A DNA stretch of 64,000 nt from an uncultured Armatimonadetes bacterium (GTDB lineage Bacteria; Armatimonadota; Hebobacteria; Hebobacterales; Hebobacteraceae). The notes under the pieces are model-generated. The model worked only from the letters and a program-made list of their open reading frames with translations. It had not been told where the DNA came from and made no database searches. Shown one piece after another: positions 1 to 28,626 of the stretch. The stretch spans positions 3,328,001 to 3,392,000 of the forward strand of contig OY970296.1 of NCBI GenBank assembly GCA_963716175.1, written 5' to 3'. Position 1 is the first letter of the stretch. Each line of letters begins with the position of its first letter. The position numbers and the translations under genes were made by a program.

Positions 1-86
1 TCCGCGGCCAACGCCGCCAGCAGCACGACCACCACCACGATGAACAGCGCGCCGGACCGCCGCCGCGCCGGGCCAGCCTTGGTCAT
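1..86 (-). CDS. Partial membrane-anchored/exported protein (runs off window start), next gene of the ModA-like operon
   Basis: ATG at 86 overlaps the TGA of 83..907 (ATGA coupling); translates MTKAGPARRRSGALFIVVVVVLLAALAA, a basic N-terminus plus hydrophobic helix. Confidence 0.65.
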   Translation of the reverse strand, partial: MTKAGPARRRSGALFIVVVVVLLAALAA

Positions 87-907
87 GGTTTCCTCTCCGG
101 GGCCGGGAGCAAGCCGGTGCCAGCCAGTGCCTGGCGCGCTTGCTCGGAGGCCAGAAAATCAACGAACTTCTGGGACGGCTGTCGCTGGCTAGTGCCCTTT
201 AGTATCCCAACCTGGAGCCGCACCGGCGGGTAAGACTCTCGCGGGAACTTGGCCACCACGCGCAGATCCGACTTGGAGGCCTTATCCGGCGCCGTCTCCA
301 GGGGACAGGTGAGATAGGTGATGCCCGCGTCCACCTGGCCTTGGCTCACCAGCTTCACCGCCTCCAGCGGATACTCCCGCAGGCGAAGCTTGCTCTGGAG
401 TGGATCCCAAAGTTTCAGCGACCGCAGCGCCTGCTCGCCATAGAAGCCAATGGAGTTGAACCTGGGGTCCCCCATGCTGATGTACTTGATGCCGGGCTTG
501 GCGAGATCGGCCAGAGTCTCCAGACCCTTGGTCTTGCTGGGGGCGAACACCACGATATCGAGAGAGCCGAAATCCCGCACCGTGCCGGTGTCGATGTACC
601 CCTCCTCCCCGAGCTGGCGCATCTCCAGCTCGCCGGGCGAGATGAAGACATCGGGCCGCTCTCCCTTGCGCACCCTCCGCACCAGCACATTGGCGTTATC
701 GAATACCACCTCCAAGCGAATCTCCGGGTGGGCCTTGCGGAAGATGGCGGTGCCCACGTTCAGGGGCCCGGTCATCCCGCAGGGCGCGAACACCAGCACC
801 GCGTTCGGCGCCGCCGCCTGCCGCTGCCGGGCGCGGCCAATCACCAGTCCGCCCACTGCCACCACCGCCGCCAGCAGCAGGATGATGCTGAACTGCGAAC
901 GGCTCAT
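83..907 (-). CDS. ModA-like ABC substrate-binding protein (atypical, Cys-substituted binding site)
   Basis: Signal anchor; ModA-fold motifs DVFIS, GDP...G.Y..QAL, V..G.VDAGI.Y, KFVDFL.S; canonical AAS/SS/YxSD replaced by PCG/NA/YLTC. Confidence 0.85.
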   Translation of the reverse strand: MSRSQFSIILLLAAVVAVGGLVIGRARQRQAAAPNAVLVFAPCGMTGPLNVGTAIFRKAHPEIRLEVVFDNANVLVRRVRKGERPDVFISPGELEMRQLGEEGYIDTGTVRDFGSLDIVVFAPSKTKGLETLADLAKPGIKYISMGDPRFNSIGFYGEQALRSLKLWDPLQSKLRLREYPLEAVKLVSQGQVDAGITYLTCPLETAPDKASKSDLRVVAKFPRESYPPVRLQVGILKGTSQRQPSQKFVDFLASEQARQALAGTGLLPAPERKP

Positions 908-1822
908 ATCCCGGCCCGCTTCGCACCCATCGGGCTCACCTCTTGCTGGGGCCCCCAGGGCCCAGGGGTGAGCGGGAGATTGCGGTCATTGCGCATGCGG
1001 TTCTCAGCCATGAACTTGATGGTCTCCGGGGAGGTGAGGAAGGTGAGGAACTCCTCCGCGAGCGCCCGCTTCTTCGTCGTCTTCAAGATGCCGACGACAT
1101 TGCGTGGCACGTAGAAGGTGTCGCTGGGGAAGTTGCAGGCGAATAGCACCTTCTGCTTCTCCGCAGTCTCCGCCGTCTTGGGGTCCAGCGGGCAGCCCAG
1201 GAACTGTACGTTCGCCTGGGCCCGGCCGTCCAGGATCCACTTGAAGGAGGACATGCAGCAGCCGGTCACCTTCATCTTGGGCTTCAGCTTCTCCCACAGC
1301 CCCAGGTTCTCCAATGACTGTCGCGCGGCGTAGCAGGCCGCGTTCAAGTCCGGGTCGGAGATCGAGATTGCTTTCACCTCCGGGTTGAGCAAGTCCGCAA
1401 GCTTCTTGATCCCGGCCCGGGTTGGCCTTGGGCACCAGTATCGCCAGATCGTAGCTGCCAAAGGCCACCTGCGTCGTCCCGTCTATGAAGCCCTTCTGCC
1501 GGAGCACCTCGATTTCGTGTCCACCCGGAGACATGAAGATGTCTGGCTTGTCCGCGTTCTCTTGCACCGCTTGCACCATCGCCTCCGGGGTGTCCACCAG
1601 CATCGGGAACTCGACATTGGGGTGGCTGACCTGGAACTTCTCGATCGCCTTCGAAATCGGCAGAAACAGGCCCTGCGGCACCGCCAGGTAGAGGGTCTGC
1701 TTCTGGGAGGCCGCCTTGCCCTCGGCCCCGCCCGCGGCGGTCACCCCGCTCTGAGCGCGCCAGGCGAAGATCGCCCCCGCCGCCACCAGGACCACCAGCA
1801 CGATGATGATCACAGCTCTCAT
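904..1822 (-). CDS. Second ModA-like substrate-binding protein, Cys-rich; +1 frameshift near 1417
   Basis: N-half in ORF 1004..1822 (KPDIFMSPG...LVPKANP) continues in ORF 904..1461 (AGIKKLADLL...ISDPDLNAAC...GCCM...FLGCP); removing one base in the C run at about 1416-1418 joins them. Confidence 0.8.
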
Positions 1823-1851
1823 GTTCTGACCTCCGAGTCCTTACCCCAGCT

Positions 1852-2349
1852 TCATCCAGGTCCGGCCGCGCCGCCCCGCGCGGCCGCCTTCCCCAGCTCC
1901 TTCAGCATCACCTGATGGGGCACCGCCCCTCGCACCCGGCCAATCTCCTTGCCGCCGCTCTCCAGGAAGACCACCGTCGGGTAGCCGCTGACCTCGAGCT
2001 GCCGCTTCAGCTCCGGCTGCCTGTCCCCGTCCACTCGCACCGGCACGAAGGCGCTGCTGGCCGCGACCACGTCAGGGCGGGAGAGCACCTCCTCCTCCAG
2101 GCGCTTGCAGGCAGAACAGCCAACGGTTGATACCTCGACCATCAAGGGCTTGTTCTCCGCGCGCGCCCGGCCCATGGCTTGCTGGTAATCGCTCAGCCAC
2201 GCGATGTGTGGCGAGCCTGCGGCAGTCCCGCCCGGCTGGACAGTAGTTGCGGAGGGGCGGGTGCAGCCGAAGGCCAGAGCCGACAGGGCGGTTATCACCG
2301 CCCACTTCCCAACTCGCACCATCGCTGTCCCGGCGCGGCTCACGGCCAT
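1852..2349 (-). CDS. Lipoprotein thioredoxin-family protein
   Basis: Lipobox LAFGC; W...Y..A...A....KP..V, CSAC active site, cis-Pro loop GYPT; start could also be 2322. Confidence 0.85.
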   Translation of the reverse strand: MAVSRAGTAMVRVGKWAVITALSALAFGCTRPSATTVQPGGTAAGSPHIAWLSDYQQAMGRARAENKPLMVEVSTVGCSACKRLEEEVLSRPDVVAASSAFVPVRVDGDRQPELKRQLEVSGYPTVVFLESGGKEIGRVRGAVPHQVMLKELGKAAARGGAAGPG

Positions 2350-14359: not shown

Positions 14360-14697
14360 CACAGCGGCTGATGCATCGTGTCTGCCTGGTTGTCTGGGCG
14401 AGGTCCTGACCTGTCTGGTGGCCGGCAGGCCAACCGCAGGGGCGGACCTGGGGCCGGCCTGCGGGCGATGGGGGCCTGTCGCGCTTAAGCGCGGGAAGAC
14501 CTGTACCTTTCGGCAGAGCTGTGGTATACTCTCGCGCCGTCCCGCGGTATGCGAGCGGCGGCGAGGCGAGGGCCTTCGCTCCCTTCCACGCCAACCGGCA
14601 CTCAGCCGGCGGGTGATCTGAGGGAGGCTGCGCCCTAGATGTGGTAACACAACCTGCACACATCTGTGACACGGCCGCCTGGCCGGGGCCGTCCGGG

Positions 14698-14709
14698 AAA
14701 AGGAGGTGA
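14698..14709 (+). promoter_or_regulatory. Orphan extended Shine-Dalgarno in leader of barrel gene 1
   Basis: AAAAGGAGGTGA 77 nt upstream of ATG 14787, preceded by hairpin ACGGCC...GGCCGT; no suitably spaced start codon. Confidence 0.5.
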
Positions 14710-14786
14710 GGGGCAGATCTGATTTCAGCTACCAGATGGGCCGCAGATGGTGCTGTGGCAACGAGAGGTGAAAGGAAGAAAGGAAG

Positions 14787-15692
14787 ATGAACAAGAGAGT
14801 GTGGGCACTTCCCGTCCTGGTTGCCCTGTTGCTGGCGGTAGGGACCGGCGTTGGGTTCGCCATCCCGTCGCTGGGTGGACCAACGGGAATCGTCAGCCTG
14901 CCGACGGCAGAGATCGCGCCTCAGAACCAACTGCAGACCGCGCTCAGCTACCAGAAGTTCACGGTGACGAGCGTAGTCGAGAGCACTGGGATGTACGGGC
15001 AGCCAGCGCCAGCAGAAAGCTCCGACGACTTCACATCCTGGTCCCTCCAGGCCTTGGCAGCAGTGACGAAGGAGGCGGAACTTTGGGCAGCCTACTCGTC
15101 CGTCAAGAACTCGGATGATACCAGCGTGTGGGGAATCGGGGGCAAGGTGCAGTTGACGAAGGAGTCCGAGCAGGGCGCTGACGTCGCCATCGGGGCCAGC
15201 TTCCAGAGCGCCACCGAGACTGTGTTGGAGTCCATCGGGATGTATGGTGAGAGCCAGGAGGTCAGCATTGATGTGGACGTGGATGTGTGGAAGGCCTACC
15301 TGGTCGCCACCAAGGACTTCGCACAGATGAAGGGCGAGATGTCGGAAGGGGCTCGACCTCGCATGCTGGGCAGCCTCGGCTTGCTCTACCTCAAGGTCAA
15401 CGCCTCGGCCAGCGCCTACGGGGTAAGTGTAAGTGAGGACGAGAGCCTGACTCGGCCCTTCATCGGGTTCGAGTTTGTGCAGCCTCCTGCGACCAGTCTG
15501 GGCCTCGAGTATCGCTGGAGTGACGACAACCTGGACGCTAAGGCCGTGTTCTCGGCCGTGCTCCGGCAGAAGCTCTCGCCGGAGGTGACAGCCGAGATCG
15601 GGACCACCAACGCCGACCCCCTCGGCCTTGGGCTCGACGATCAGAACATCTTCGTGCGCGTAGGGTATAGCTTCCCACTTAAGGGGTATTAG
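14787..15692 (+). CDS. Outer-membrane beta-barrel protein, YjbH-like N-terminus, paralog 1
   Basis: Signal peptide ending GFA; PSLGGPTGIVSLPTA motif; amphipathic beta strands; C-terminal RVGYSF beta-signal-like motif. Confidence 0.75.
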   Translation: MNKRVWALPVLVALLLAVGTGVGFAIPSLGGPTGIVSLPTAEIAPQNQLQTALSYQKFTVTSVVESTGMYGQPAPAESSDDFTSWSLQALAAVTKEAELWAAYSSVKNSDDTSVWGIGGKVQLTKESEQGADVAIGASFQSATETVLESIGMYGESQEVSIDVDVDVWKAYLVATKDFAQMKGEMSEGARPRMLGSLGLLYLKVNASASAYGVSVSEDESLTRPFIGFEFVQPPATSLGLEYRWSDDNLDAKAVFSAVLRQKLSPEVTAEIGTTNADPLGLGLDDQNIFVRVGYSFPLKGY

Positions 15693-24249: not shown

Positions 24250-25317
24250 GTGCTATCAGTGCAGTTCGGCAAGCAGCTTCGGGAGTTCGAGCTCGAGATC
24301 GGGTTCGAGGTGCGGCCCGCCGAGACCCTGGTCGTGATCGGGCCCAGCGGCTGCGGCAAGACCACCACACTCAATGTCATCGCCGGCCTGGTGGAGCCGG
24401 ATGAGGGCCGCATCGCCCTGTCAGATCGCGTGCTCTGGGATCGAGAGGCCGGGGTTGACGTGCCGACCGAGGGCCGCAATGTCGGGTATGTGTTCCAGGA
24501 TTTCGCGCTCTTCCCCCATATGTCGGTGAGCGAGAATGTGGCCTACGGGCTGCGTGCTCGCAAGGCCCCCAGGGACAGTATCAAGGCGCGGGTGAGCGAG
24601 GCCCTGGCTTTGCTGGGCATAGAGCACCTGCGGGAGCGGCGGCCGGGGGCCCTTTCCGGGGGCGAGCGGCAGCGAGTGGCGCTGGCGCGCGCCATCGCCT
24701 GCCAGGCCGGGATCTTGCTGCTGGACGAGCCCCTGGGATCACTCGACGCCCAGACCCGCAATCAGGTGCGGGGGGAGCTGCAGCGGATGCTGCGCCTGGT
24801 GCGCCGGATCGTGATCATGGTGACCCATGATTACATTGATGCTCTCACCTTCGGCGATCAGATTTGCGTGCTGGACCGGGGGCGGATCCTCCAGATCGGC
24901 AACCGGAGCCAACTGCTGCGCCACCCGAAGTCGCGATTTGTCGCGGAGCTGACCGGGGTCAACTTCTTCGAGGGCGAGATCACCGCCCTGCCGCCCGAGG
25001 GGGCGGCCGAGATCACGGTGAACGGGGCCCAGCTCTACGCGGTCTCCGGTCAGCAGGAGACCGGCCACACGCTGGTGGCGTTCTTCCCGAGCGATGTCGC
25101 GATCAGCCGCGAGGCCCCGGACTCCTCCGCGCGGAATGTCTTCCAGACCGAAATCAGAGAGATCGTCCACCTCGGGGACAAGGTGCGGCTGTCGTTGAAC
25201 GGGGCCTTGCCCATGTGCGCCGAGATCACCGCCGGGTCGCTGGACCGGATGGGGCTGAGGGAAGGCGACGCAGTCTACGCCTCGCTGAAGGCGACGGCGA
25301 TCAAGACCTATCGCTGA
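24250..25317 (+). CDS. ABC ATPase, ModC/WtpC-like with TOBE domain
   Basis: GPSGCGKT, LSGGERQRVALAR, LLLDEP, SSARN...TOBE ending LKAT. Confidence 0.9.
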   Translation: MLSVQFGKQLREFELEIGFEVRPAETLVVIGPSGCGKTTTLNVIAGLVEPDEGRIALSDRVLWDREAGVDVPTEGRNVGYVFQDFALFPHMSVSENVAYGLRARKAPRDSIKARVSEALALLGIEHLRERRPGALSGGERQRVALARAIACQAGILLLDEPLGSLDAQTRNQVRGELQRMLRLVRRIVIMVTHDYIDALTFGDQICVLDRGRILQIGNRSQLLRHPKSRFVAELTGVNFFEGEITALPPEGAAEITVNGAQLYAVSGQQETGHTLVAFFPSDVAISREAPDSSARNVFQTEIREIVHLGDKVRLSLNGALPMCAEITAGSLDRMGLREGDAVYASLKATAIKTYR

Positions 25318-25335
25318 GCACGGAGTCGTGGTGTG

Positions 25336-26149
25336 ATGGGAACGCGCAGGATCATCGTCATCACTCTGATCTGCATCGCCGTGGTAGCAGGCGTCTTGCT
25401 CTTCGCCTGGTCGGGTAACGCCAGGGACGAGATCAGGCTGCTGGCCCACGCCGGCGCTGGAATCCAGCCTCCGCTGGACGAGCTGGGGGCGATGTTCGCC
25501 AAGAGGACGGGCATCGGCGTGGACTACAGCTACAAAGGGTCGGGGTGCTTGCTGCCCGACATCGTGATCTCGCAGAAGGGCGATATCTACATCCCGGGCG
25601 AGCTGTTCTACATGCAGCAGGCGGTGGATCGCGGCCTCATCAGCAAGTACCGTCCCGTGGCCCAGATGAGCACGGTTGTGATCGCGCAGCACGGGAACCC
25701 GAAGAAGATCGCCGGCCTCAAGGACCTGGCGCGGCCGGGGCTGCGGGTTGGGCTGGGGGATGCCAAAGCCATCGCCATCGGGCGCGCCGCCAGGATGGTG
25801 CTCGAAGAGGGCCAAGCTGCGGGATCGGGTGGAAAAGAACGTGTGCATGTGCTGCATGAACGTGGTGGAGCTGGGCAATGCCGTGAAGCTGGGCCACCTG
25901 GATGCCGCGATCGTGTGGGACGGCACCGCCGCGCTCTACGGAGAGGCCATCACCACCATCCCCATCCCCGCGGCCTACCGGGAGACCAGCACTATCCCCG
26001 TGGGAGTGCTGAGAGTCTCCAAGCACCCCAGGGAGGCGGCGCAGTTCATGGACTTCCTGGCCAGCAAGGAAGCGGCGCCGATCTTCCGCAGGCACGGCTA
26101 CGCGGTCCCCGAGGGCGCCGCGAAGAAGGTCGCGGGCGGGAAGCTTTGA
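25336..26149 (+). CDS. ModA-like substrate-binding protein 3; +1 frameshift near 25804
   Basis: HAGAG, YKGSGCL, GNPK.I..LKDL, AIGR in ORF 25333..; continues CMCCMNVVE...DAAIVWD...FMDFLAS...F..HGY in 25748..26149. Confidence 0.82.
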
Positions 26150-27066
26150 GCGCGGTGGAGGCGGCGCGACCGCGAGGGAATCTCAATAACTCGCTGTTCG
26201 CGGCCCTGCTCGTGAGCGTGCTGATCGTTTTCCTGGCCGCTGTTGCCCTGGTGCTGCTGAGCAACGTCTGGTACCTGGCCGGGCCTCACCCCGCGGTAGG
26301 CAAGAGCGGCTGGCAGCTGTTCCTGGCCGGACTGCAGGACCCGGAGAACCTGTTCGCGATCAAGCTCAGCGTGCTCATGTCGGCGATCACCGCCCTCATC
26401 TCCATGCTGGTAGCAATCCCCGCCGCCTACTCGCTCTCCCGCTTCCGGGTAGTGGGCTCTTCCATTATTGACACTCTCCTGGACCTGCCCATCGTGGTCC
26501 CGCCCCCGGTGCTCGGGCTCAGCCTGCTGATGTTCTTCCAGACCGCGGCGGGCAGAGCGGTGAACGATCTCACACCCCAATGGTTTGTCGGCTCCATCAA
26601 CCTGGTGCTTTCTCACATTCTGGGGCAGCCCATCCGGGATGATCAGAACTGGGTGTACTCCACCCGCGGCATCGTGCTGGCACAGTTCTTCGTCGCCTGC
26701 TCTTTTGGCGTGCGGGCGGTGAAGGCCGCGTTCGACACCATCGGCACCAGGCACGAGGAGGTGGCGCGCACTCTGGGCTGCACCCGGCGCCAGGCCTTCT
26801 TCCGCGTGGTGCTGCCGATGGCCCGCACCGGGATCGTCGCCGGCGCGGTGATGACCTGGGCGCGGGCGGTGGCGGAGTTCGGGCCGGTGCTGTTCTTCTG
26901 CGGAGCCACGCGGCTGAAGACCGAGGTGCTGCCGATCGGAATGTTCCTGCTCTACTCGGCCGGCAAGCTAGAGCAGGCGGTGGTGCTGCTGCTGATCATG
27001 CTCATCATCTCCACCTTGACGCTGCTGACGTTCAAGAGACTCGGGGGCAAGGGTTATCTGTGGTGA
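26146..27066 (+). CDS. ABC permease, ModB/WtpB-like
   Basis: TTG overlapping upstream TGA; DLPIVVPP.V.GL.LL, EEVARTLG EAA loop, WARAVAEFG. Confidence 0.88.
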   Translation: MSAVEAARPRGNLNNSLFAALLVSVLIVFLAAVALVLLSNVWYLAGPHPAVGKSGWQLFLAGLQDPENLFAIKLSVLMSAITALISMLVAIPAAYSLSRFRVVGSSIIDTLLDLPIVVPPPVLGLSLLMFFQTAAGRAVNDLTPQWFVGSINLVLSHILGQPIRDDQNWVYSTRGIVLAQFFVACSFGVRAVKAAFDTIGTRHEEVARTLGCTRRQAFFRVVLPMARTGIVAGAVMTWARAVAEFGPVLFFCGATRLKTEVLPIGMFLLYSAGKLEQAVVLLLIMLIISTLTLLTFKRLGGKGYLW

Positions 27067-27100
27067 GCCGCGCTGATAAGACGCCGATAGACACAGCAAC

Positions 27101-27155
27101 TGTACGGCGGGCATTCCCATGCCCGCCAGGCGGGCGTAGGCACGCCCGCTCTACA
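27101..27155. repeat. REP-like doublet (GTAG family)
   Basis: TGTAC-GGCGGGCAT..ATGCCCGCC followed by inverted GCGGGCGT..ACGCCCGC-TCTACA. Confidence 0.75.
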
Positions 27156-27171
27156 CAGGAGGTTGGTCCGG

Positions 27172-27444
27172 ATGGTTAAGTTGAGGTTGTTTTCCAGTCT
27201 GCGTGAGATTGCAGGGTCGAAGGAGGTGGAAATCGAGGCCGACCGGCTCTCGGTCAGGCAGGCGCTCGAGCGGTTCGCGGAGCGCTTCGGAGAGCGAGCG
27301 AAAGAGTGCCTCTTTGATAAGCAGGGACAGCTCTTCCCCAGCGTGCTGCTGCTGGTGAACGGTGAGGCGGCCGAAGGCGGCCAGGAGACCCAGGTCAGGT
27401 CGGGGGACGTGGTCTCGGTGCTGCTGCCCACGGCCGGGGGGTAG
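27172..27444 (+). CDS. MoaD/ThiS/SAMP ubiquitin-like sulfur carrier
   Basis: LFSSLRE, LVNG, GD.V...P..GG C-terminal di-glycine; AGGAGG RBS. Confidence 0.9.
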   Translation: MVKLRLFSSLREIAGSKEVEIEADRLSVRQALERFAERFGERAKECLFDKQGQLFPSVLLLVNGEAAEGGQETQVRSGDVVSVLLPTAGG

Positions 27445-27564
27445 GGAGAGGACACAACTGCAGATGGAGGCAGATGAACGCAGATAGGGGAGCAAGGGAC
27501 AGAACCCCAGAGTCGGGCGGAAGGTCCGGCCCAACCTGGACGCGGCAGAACGGGGGCGACGGCC

Positions 27565-28626
27565 TTGGCGGCTGAGGCGCTCATTCAGGTGCGCGGGGTC
27601 TCGATCACGCTGGGCGAGTTCGCCGTCCGCGACGCATGCCTGGCGGTGGAGGCCGGGGAGTATTTCGTGCTGCTGGGGCCCACCGGGGCGGGGAAGACCG
27701 TGCTGCTGGAGTGCATCGCGGGGCTGCACCGGCCCCATCAGGGCGAGATCCTGGTGGCGGGACGGCGGGTGAACGAGGTGCCGCCAGAGCAGCGGGGGCT
27801 GGGCTATCTGCCGCAGGACTACGCCCTCTTCCCGCACCTCGACGTGGCCCAGAACATCGGCTTCGGCATGCGCCTGCGCCGGAAGACGCGAGCAGAGATC
27901 AGCCGGCGGGTGCAGGAGCTGGCCGAGCTGCTGGGCATCACGCATCTGCTCGCCCGCTCACCGGTGCATCTCAGCGGAGGCGAGAAGCAGCGGGCGGCGC
28001 TGGCCCGGGCGCTGGCCATCGAGCCCCAGGTGCTGCTGCTCGACGAACCCCTGAGCGCGCTCGACGAGCAGACGCGGGAGGCGCTGTGCGTGGAGCTGCG
28101 CCGCGTGCACGCGCAGCTTCGCACTACCACCGTGCACGTCTCGCACAACTTCGAGGAAACTCTGGCGGTGGCCGACCGCATCGGGGTCATCCACCAGGGG
28201 CGGATTCAGCAGGTGGGCACTCCGGAGGAGGTGTTCCATCGGCCGGCCTCCGAGTTCGTGGCCCGCTTCGTGCGATCCGAGAACATCCTGCGGGGCCGGG
28301 CCCAGCGAGGGGCCGATGGCGTGCTGGTGAGCGTAGGCCTGGTGAATCTGAAGGCCGCGGACGGACCGGAGGGCGATGTCTTCCTCACCGTGAGGCCGGA
28401 GGATGTGGAGGTGACAACGCCGATGCCTGATCGCCCCAACACGGTCACCGGCCCCATCGTGAGCATCGTGGATCGGGGGCCGCTGGTGCGGGTGGATATC
28501 AACGGCGGAGTGAGCATGACGGCGCTGGTGACGAGGCGGACCTGGCAGGCCGAAGGGTTCCGGGTGGGGGAGGTGGTGAGCGCGCACTTCGAGCCGGGGG
28601 CGGCGCACGTACTCAGGGCGGACTGA
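27565..28626 (+). CDS. Second ABC ATPase, WtpC/ModC-like with TOBE domain
   Basis: GPTGAGKT, LSGGEKQR, LLLDEPLSALD, C-terminal TOBE. Confidence 0.9.
   Translation: MAAEALIQVRGVSITLGEFAVRDACLAVEAGEYFVLLGPTGAGKTVLLECIAGLHRPHQGEILVAGRRVNEVPPEQRGLGYLPQDYALFPHLDVAQNIGFGMRLRRKTRAEISRRVQELAELLGITHLLARSPVHLSGGEKQRAALARALAIEPQVLLLDEPLSALDEQTREALCVELRRVHAQLRTTTVHVSHNFEETLAVADRIGVIHQGRIQQVGTPEEVFHRPASEFVARFVRSENILRGRAQRGADGVLVSVGLVNLKAADGPEGDVFLTVRPEDVEVTTPMPDRPNTVTGPIVSIVDRGPLVRVDINGGVSMTALVTRRTWQAEGFRVGEVVSAHFEPGAAHVLRAD

Follow-up and report, generated by a model that had tools for sequence, protein, structure and literature searches.

Organization of the Locus

The 64,000-nucleotide stretch analyzed here (the window; positions 3,328,001 to 3,392,000 of contig OY970296.1 from an uncultured Armatimonadetes bacterium, or G000:C1:3328001-3392000 in our numbering, where G000 is the source genome and f1 its family) opens with four co-directional genes on the minus strand, which encode a thioredoxin-like lipoprotein, two ModA-fold substrate-binding proteins (SBP2 and SBP1), and a protein called here g3, whose gene runs out of the window:

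1852..2349, minus strand: thioredoxin-like lipoprotein with a CSAC active site (PF13899, 59.2 bits; PF13098, 52.5 bits)
904..1822, minus strand: SBP2, a ModA-fold protein with an N-terminal membrane anchor, in two frames in the assembly (PF13531 on both halves)
83..907, minus strand: SBP1, a ModA-fold protein of 274 aa with an N-terminal membrane anchor and a cysteine pair, C43 (APCG) and C201 (TCPL) (PF13531)
1..86, minus strand: 5' end of g3 (the entire gene, encoding 169 aa, lies at 14577-15086 of locus L001, left of the window)

Start and stop codons overlapping as ATGA are the usual sign of coupled translation, and such overlaps join SBP2 to SBP1 (window 904-907) and SBP1 to g3 (83-86). 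The lipoprotein gene has a possible alternative start, the ATG at 2322. As read from the sequences, SBP1, SBP2, and g3 each begin with a hydrophobic anchor, and an obvious cleavage site is not seen in any of them. Both the layout and the Pfam matches agree with the initial annotation of this DNA, which had described two coupled ModA-like genes, a third gene leaving the window, and a CSAC lipoprotein upstream.

Leftward of g3 lie genes for a GAF protein, RodA, and DUF1844, and a PDZ protein is encoded rightward of the locus. The order thioredoxin–SBP2–SBP1–g3–RodA is retained in five out of six f1 loci fetched, the sixth (from G151) being without the thioredoxin and SBP2, and the SBP2–SBP1 tandem, judged by match coordinates, is present in 11 of the 14 f1 genomes with an SBP1 match. 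The gene between g3 and rodA (L001 13912-14517, minus strand) encodes a 201-aa cysteine-rich GAF-domain protein; it had no tblastn match across 16 related loci from the phylum, and thus is probably a lineage-specific insertion outside the system.

The frameshift in SBP2, already flagged in the initial annotation, is due to one extra base at window position 1410. In two related metagenome runs, the place is covered by one contig each, and neither contig has this base (by mismatch counts, these contigs are 96-98% alike to the stretch and represent related strains). There is also P0125, a protein of 305 aa that is intact and nearly identical; hence SBP2 is intact in close relatives. SBP3, another gene of the ModA family in the window, is likewise frame-split, near 25770-25810, and G000, a single contig, has a marker completeness of just 90.85%, which makes an assembly error plausible.

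Fold and Conserved Cysteines of the Binding Proteins

SBP1 matches PF13531 with 136.4 bits (cut-off 25), and the two halves of SBP2, with 35.5 and 60.7 bits. The AlphaFold2 model of SBP1 has a predicted local distance difference test (pLDDT) value of 92.9, and its top Foldseek matches are ModA structures, with template modeling (TM) scores of 0.77-0.81. By source names and one named locus, the SBP1 homologs belong to Armatimonadota, and their current annotation is "molybdate ABC transporter substrate-binding protein" (ABC, ATP-binding cassette).

The residues of ModA that contact the anion are Ser12, Ser39, Ala125, Val152, and Tyr170 (PMC8895017). SBP1 was mapped on the solved chains of E. coli ModA by HMMER alignment, with the following correspondence:

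SBP1 C43: E. coli ModA Ala11
SBP1 G44: E. coli ModA Ser12
SBP1 A72: E. coli ModA Ser39
SBP1 I153: E. coli ModA Ala125
SBP1 P180: E. coli ModA Val152
SBP1 Y198: E. coli ModA Tyr170
SBP1 C201: third residue past Tyr170, opening a 7-residue insertion

The oxyanion ligand set is therefore replaced by Gly/Ala/Ile/Pro/Tyr in SBP1, where the change of Val152 to proline removes a backbone NH, and by Gly/Pro/Ala/Cys/Phe in SBP2. At the level of motifs, AAS is changed to PCG, SS to NA, PAG to SIG, DV to YP, and YGSD to YLTC followed by the insertion; the same segments of SBP2, taken from the domain alignment, read PQG, TP, AAC, GCC, and FLGC. Both series reproduce the replacements that had been noted by eye in the initial annotation. 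Tyrosine at the position of Tyr170 is found in 87 of the 106 aligned sequences of the SBP1 family, and phenylalanine, in the other 19.

The cysteines are conserved far beyond chance. Across the 106 sequences of the SBP1 alignment (SBP1 and its best 110 matches, less five shorter than 250 aa), C43 is retained in 105 and C201 in all. Among 92 SBP2 homologs (one of less than 270 aa and the two weakest matches left out), C189 is invariant, C188 and C210 are present in 91 each, C229 in 83, and C163 in 42, the family motifs being P[Q/M]G, TGCC, and GCP[L/M]D. Conservation in homologs had been suggested as a check on the initial annotation, and it holds for the cysteines of both proteins.

SBP2 has no cysteine at position 11; its C188 and C189 occupy ModA positions 151/152, adjacent to 153, and C210 is found at the position of the second cysteine. 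An engineered E. coli ModA, A11C/R153C, is reported to contain a disulfide linkage (PDB:3AXF; PMC8895017), and thus position 11 is within reach of position 153 across the cleft. By this mapping, the SBP2 thiol sits on the opposite wall of the same spot as C43, which argues for a functional cleft thiol and not for a chance or purely structural cysteine. By homology, the conserved cysteines are predicted to lie at or beside the anion site and to converge in the cleft. The original claim that cysteines fall on ligand positions is thus retained in this looser form, as C43 aligns with Ala11, beside the ligand Ser12 and not on Ser12 itself.

Many of the binding-protein domains encoded in the 16 related loci have the motif pair [V/A]PCG ... 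C[P/L], and all 27 segments of the domain alignment with the first cysteine in the P-C-G/V context also carry the second one. The pair is missing from canonical ModA (AAASL, ASS, YSSD) and from proteins of the SBP3 type. In a quick maximum-likelihood tree, all cysteine-pair (Cys-pair) domains and SBP2 form one group (35 out of 48 rows; Shimodaira–Hasegawa-like approximate likelihood ratio test, 93), with SBP2 as a long stem within it. For the Cys-pair proteins, the current annotation as molybdate-binding is probably incorrect, or at least incomplete.

G000 has three further Cys-pair paralogs (442623, 1109021, 2397819). One region outside the window, G000:C1:2396370-2399881, contains genes for a ThiF/MoeB-family protein, a g3 paralog, a Cys-pair protein (LPCV ... 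RDCL), and a transporter of the MFS type. Selenocysteine at the cysteine columns, for which the initial annotation had proposed a search, was not borne out: of the in-frame TGA codons checked in nine loci (L015, L021, L022, L049-L054), none falls at a cysteine column, and all are terminal stops except for the one in L053. There (G101:C35, approximately 931-1110), the Cys-pair gene of the permease type is present in a second copy, which has an in-frame TGA at an arginine column and likely is a pseudogene.

The Thioredoxin-Like Lipoprotein and g3

The lipobox cysteine, the CxxC motif, and the cis-proline ([YL]PT) are retained in all six f1 orthologs of the thioredoxin-like lipoprotein, which has the fold profile, CxxC, and cis-proline expected of a redox-active thioredoxin. 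G000 encodes three membrane reductant carriers of the CcdA/DsbD type, none of them at this locus, and these could feed reductant to the lipoprotein. Outside the window, at G000:C1:2338500-2343500, a CcdA-type carrier adjoins a fragment of PF03773 with an in-frame TGA, and a nearby fragment resembles, by eye, an arsenite methyltransferase.

g3 has no Pfam or NCBIfam match, and its family is small (86 representatives with E ≤ 0.001 among 1.84 billion), with five members in G000. The AlphaFold2 model (pLDDT 90.9) consists of a membrane anchor and a thioredoxin-fold domain, the structural alignment spanning residues 54-169. All of the best 50 VIA-align matches (Z from 8.9 to 6.9) but one, an arabinanase, are thioredoxin-fold proteins or a thioredoxin fusion, including DsbA, ScsC, thioredoxins, and glutaredoxins, and Foldseek yields the same kinds of proteins, weakly (best E 2e-3). 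A CxxC motif is not found in g3, which in this differs from redox-active thioredoxins. At the start of the helix that bears CxxC in thioredoxins, the g3 family instead has cysteine in 37 of 46 sequences, followed by histidine, also in 37 of 46 (motif x-x-x-[C/W]-H; the g3 of the window has W77 for this cysteine), and the cis-proline site is occupied by Cys-Ala (C119 in 42 and A120 in all 46).

In family f32, proteins of 684 aa combine g3, a Cys-pair domain, and an SBP3 domain, and in G038 g3 is fused with a single Cys-pair domain. These fusions speak for a joint function of g3 with the binding proteins. In the f32 loci L039-L042 (e.g., L039 7874-9928), the fusion gene precedes those for an ABC permease of the Mod type, a ferritin-like protein, and a DUF6785/DUF6784 protein.

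Linkage With a Cysteine-Rich Permease

We surveyed 301 genomes of Armatimonadota, 56 of which have an SBP1 match with E ≤ 1e-30. Outside f1, the constant neighbor of the Cys-pair gene encodes a permease of 400-430 aa assigned to PF03773 (ArsP_1) with 165-178 bits: the two genes lie at most approximately 1.6 kb apart in 37 out of 41 matched genomes outside f1 and f2, representing 14 families, the exceptions being G146, G155, G232, and G176. In every f1 genome, and also in the only one from f2, the permease gene is located away from the binding protein; in G000 it occupies 4024812-4025972 (PF03773, 156.2 bits), with no flanking ars genes.

The permease (E ≤ 1e-75) is found in 47 of the 56 genomes with the binding protein, and three genomes have the permease only; these co-occurrence figures are descriptive, as relatives are not independent and shared ancestry is uncorrected. 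Of the nine remaining genomes, five have split or partial permease matches (G124, G160, G212, G265, G271), G146 (84% complete) and G155 (80%) have only weaker ones, with 33-34% identity, and G232 (61%) and G272 (55%) have none. One of these, G265, is another single-contig assembly (65% complete), and the split genes in G000 and G265 suggest indel errors, typical of long-read assemblies.

Six cysteines of the permease (C17, C18, C74, C76, C378, and C380) do not vary across 43 sequences and form an N-terminal CC, a CSCN motif in an early transmembrane segment, and a C-terminal CxC. The PF03773 match and the cysteine pair in the early transmembrane segment place the permease in the ArsP family; in ArsP itself, such a pair is reported to be functionally essential. 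The source annotations are YraQ/UPF0718 or simply "permease". The top NCBIfam matches, SaoE and the SO_0444 Cu/Zn efflux family, reach 59-86 bits against cut-offs of 300-325 (for SaoE, NF040736, 65.5 bits in G000 and 86.2 bits in L039, with the cut-off of 325). Complex prediction for SBP1 and the G000 permease gave a score of 0.02 (mark, 0.32), which speaks neither for nor against an interaction.

ABC Transporter Genes and Other Neighbors

An ABC set of the Mod/Wtp type is located in the window 23 kb from SBP1:

24250..25317, plus strand: ABC ATPase, part of the Mod/Wtp-type ABC set in the window
25333..26149, plus strand: SBP3, a non-cysteine ModA-family binding protein, frameshifted (two PF13531 pieces in different frames)
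26215..27066, plus strand: Mod/Wtp-type ABC permease (43-52% identical to the cluster permeases of L045, L047, and L039-L042)
27565..28626, plus strand: ABC ATPase with tungstate WtpC as the best model (NF040840, 386.9 bits; cut-off 440)

SBP3 continues in one open frame into the permease, up to 27066, and shares 41-47% identity with its counterparts, whether genes or domains, within the Cys-pair clusters of other families. Such clusters in L045 (G011), L047 (G243), and f32 include SBP3, as a gene or a domain, and an ABC permease of the Mod/Wtp type (for the L045 ortholog, 203.5 bits with TIGR01581, cut-off 210.3), and those of L045 and L047 additionally hold an ATPase with WtpC as the best model, 52-54% identical to the one at 27565..28626. 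The G000 orthologs of the cluster ABC genes thus are those at window 25333-28626, with 43-54% identity overall. The 23-kb spacing is probably incidental, since in other f1 genomes the ABC genes lie 130-640 kb from SBP1. Separately, G000 has a canonical binding protein and ModB pair at 4209646-4211158.

Other neighbors vary. The operon at 10601-13692 of L045 (G011:C12) comprises a redoxin (split or fused), the cysteine-rich permease, the Cys-pair protein, and ArsD (PF06953, 96.6 bits). ArsD was considered as a general partner and rejected, since just 11 of the 301 genomes have it and only one of these has it next to the cluster. NifS-type cysteine desulfurases adjoin the clusters in G203 and G043, and a ThiF/MoeB-family gene adjoins the f32 permease and, in G000, the module of g3 and a Cys-pair gene at 2396370-2398502.

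Proposed Mechanism and Alternative Explanations

Our preferred interpretation, to which we give about an even chance, is that cysteine thiols capture a thiophilic, anion-like species in a transport system made up of several parts. SBP1 and SBP2 would represent a distinct branch of the ModA family, in which the hydrogen-bonding oxyanion site has been rebuilt around cysteine thiols, with one cysteine per lobe in SBP1 (C43 and C201), and, in SBP2, a CC pair directly across the cleft from the lost lobe-1 cysteine, in addition to C210. Tethered, like g3, to the outer face of the cell membrane, the binding proteins may close on the sulfur-loving, probably anion-like cargo and grip it by two thiolates; the CxxC lipoprotein would keep their thiols reduced, g3 might be a docking or hand-over partner, and both g3 and the permease may exchange cargo with the binding proteins. 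The locus would then belong to a more extensive conserved system, the remaining parts of which are dispersed in this family (the permease at 4024812-4025972, the ABC set at window 25333-28626). A thiol-binding cargo is favored over plain hydrogen bonding of an oxyanion because the partners, namely the CxxC lipoprotein, g3, and the permease, are thiol-rich. In this respect the thiophilic ligand proposed in the initial annotation is likely, given the conserved cysteines and such partners. We would not keep the term "uptake system" used there, as the locus has no permease or ATPase, and the family of the associated permease is known for efflux.

Several observations weigh against this interpretation. 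No permease or ATPase adjoins the locus in this genome, ABC genes being absent from the 15 kb to its left and the 3.6 kb to its right; the assembly has frameshifts in both SBP2 and SBP3; the genomes behind the co-occurrence figures share ancestry; and the neighbors in other families (ArsD, cysteine desulfurase, ThiF/MoeB) point several ways. Periplasmic cysteine pairs commonly form disulfides. SBP1 retains the tyrosine and backbone NH donors (positions 12, 39, and 125), residues 205-210 of its model, in the loop following C201, have pLDDT below 50, and the protein scores 98.4 bits with the ModA equivalog model TIGR01256, over the cut-off of 62.5 (P0125, the intact SBP2 homolog, is barely below it with 61.2 bits). 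Finally, a regulatory, redox-sensitive disulfide, C141–C189, has been described in ModA from Acinetobacter baumannii (PMC11734730).

Alternatively, SBP1 and SBP2 would be ordinary or redox-gated binders of molybdate or tungstate, in which backbone NH groups and the tyrosine hold the anion. The cysteines would then form a disulfide between the lobes that adjusts the affinity or fixes the protein in its closed form, to be reset by the thioredoxin lipoprotein. The TIGR01256 score, the retained equivalent of Tyr170, and the Mod/Wtp-type ABC genes in the same clusters of other families all fit; so do the A. baumannii disulfide, which cuts the molybdate affinity approximately 170-fold (PMC11734730), and the engineered 11–153 disulfide, which tolerates anion binding. 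Yet both serine side-chain donors are gone and Val152 is replaced by proline, the genome already has a canonical binding protein and ModB pair at 4.21 Mb, and neither the near-universal linkage to a cysteine-rich non-ABC permease nor the shift of the SBP2 cysteine across the cleft, instead of its loss, is explained. We consider this explanation unlikely.

A similarly low probability is assigned to the possibility that the Cys-pair proteins are periplasmic thiol chaperones in detoxification or efflux, receiving or buffering outside a soft metal or metalloid (trivalent (organo)arsenic, antimony, Cu(I), or a mercury-like species) exported by the permease. The permease does belong to PF03773 (156-178 bits), its characterized relatives export methylarsenite and roxarsone(III) (PMC6205960), its top NCBIfam matches are SaoE and the SO_0444 Cu/Zn efflux family, and in G011 the pair of permease and binding protein is flanked by ArsD and a redoxin. 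On the other hand, those matches are far under the cut-offs, ArsD is adjacent to the cluster in one genome out of the 11 that have it, the G000 permease is without ars neighbors, ModA-fold binding proteins are generally known from import and not export, and the clusters also contain importer genes of the Mod/Wtp type. A role outside transport, with the ModA-fold domains as redox-sensing or protein-folding clients or partners of envelope thioredoxin-fold proteins, rodA being nearby, is very unlikely: it would suit the absence of a transporter gene at this locus, the RodA and DUF1844 synteny retained in f1, and the anchoring of SBP1, SBP2, and g3, none of which is free, but the RodA synteny is limited to f1, the permease is the constant neighbor across 14 other families, and ABC transporter genes recur in the clusters.

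Returning to thiol-based capture, our guess for the cargo is thiolated or thiol-reactive species of molybdenum or tungsten (Mo/W) first, and metalloids of the As(III) type second. Mo/W is suggested by descent from ModA and by the ABC genes of the Wtp/Mod type, and trivalent arsenic-type cargo, by the ArsP-type permease and the single ArsD. The metagenome runs sharing this stretch are labeled as wetland and sediment, and no RNA run is listed among the sequencing runs; such habitats can be sulfidic, and thiolated Mo/W species dominate in sulfidic wetlands and sediments. In sulfidic water, Mo/W form thio-anions (PMC11484787). We therefore put forward, tentatively and as a doubtful proposition at this stage, a dedicated system for acquiring Mo/W from thiolated species (thiomolybdate, thiotungstate), made up of the Cys-pair branch of ModA, the thioredoxin-fold partners, the permease, and the ABC transporter, where protein thiolates would replace hydrogen bonds in holding the metal–sulfur anion. 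Tetrathiomolybdate can feed a methanogen according to a 2024 study, in the consulted part of which a dedicated transporter was not named (PMC11484787). Should thiolated Mo/W be the cargo, the system would matter for how metals are supplied in sulfidic habitats, and would provide a molecular answer to how anaerobes acquire Mo where molybdate does not persist; if it is of the arsenic type, the system would be a new periplasmic arm of metalloid handling.

Whatever its cargo, the Cys-pair system is probably a conserved, uncharacterized transport system. ModA-family binding proteins are the standard example of proteins that recognize an anion solely through hydrogen bonds, and a clade in which serines are swapped for invariant thiols would, if the interpretation is right, add a new recognition chemistry to the ModA fold. 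In the literature covered by a partly unselective search, neither a Cys-type branch of ModA nor binding proteins paired with ArsP-family permeases are described.

Comparison With Known Systems

The closest known relatives by fold are ModA and WtpA (PF13531, TIGR01256; PDB:1AMF/1WOD, 4KD5, 7TAV, 8ZJ6), with which the Cys-pair proteins share the two-lobe fold, the Tyr170 equivalent, the architecture of helix N-termini and, in other families, clusters with Mod/Wtp-type ABC genes. They differ in the replacement of Ser12 and Ser39, the change of Val152 to Pro, the cysteines at positions 11, 151/152, and after Tyr170, and the 7-residue insertion, and also in being membrane-anchored, with no adjacent modBC and with linkage to a cysteine-rich permease that is not of the ABC type.

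Two ModA proteins with unusual cysteines are relevant. In A. baumannii ModA (PDB:8ZJ6/8ZJ8), function is likewise tied to a non-canonical cysteine pair and its redox state; however, both cysteines, C141 and C189, belong to lobe B, off the ligand residues, and are unique to that species among those compared, and molybdate is bound at 0.18 nM (PMC11734730), whereas the cysteines described here, one in each lobe, are predicted from alignment to be at or next to ligand positions and characterize an entire clade. E. coli ModA A11C/R153C (PDB:3AXF) has a cysteine at the very position to which SBP1 C43 aligns, but it is artificial, and its disulfide traps perrhenate bound by the normal residues (PMC8895017).

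The linked permease is a member of PF03773 (TC 2.A.119), together with ArsP, SO_0444, and YraQ permeases, and has the CSC motif in the early transmembrane segment; unlike them, it has the additional invariant CC and CxC and no ars operon in this genome. Its pairing with periplasmic binding proteins is not mentioned for the PF03773 family in the consulted part of PMC7176098.

The SAO system of Clostridioides difficile and other anaerobes comprises SaoX binding proteins with converging cysteines, including CC, the ArsP-family transporter SaoE, the thioredoxin-like SaoT, and ABC subunits (Haft, 2022, bioRxiv 10.1101/2022.07.06.499078). The comparison with it, drawn in the initial annotation, is apt as an analogy, SaoE being the best NCBIfam match of the permease, but not as a family assignment, given 65-86 bits against the cut-off of 325. 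No Sao binding-protein or SaoT model is listed for SBP1, SBP2, the thioredoxin, or g3, no Sao model cut-off is reached, no selenocysteine was found in the nine loci checked, and MerB-like or DsrE-like genes are not seen in the loci that we read. The two systems thus have the same kinds of parts, with binding proteins from another fold family and a host from a different phylum.

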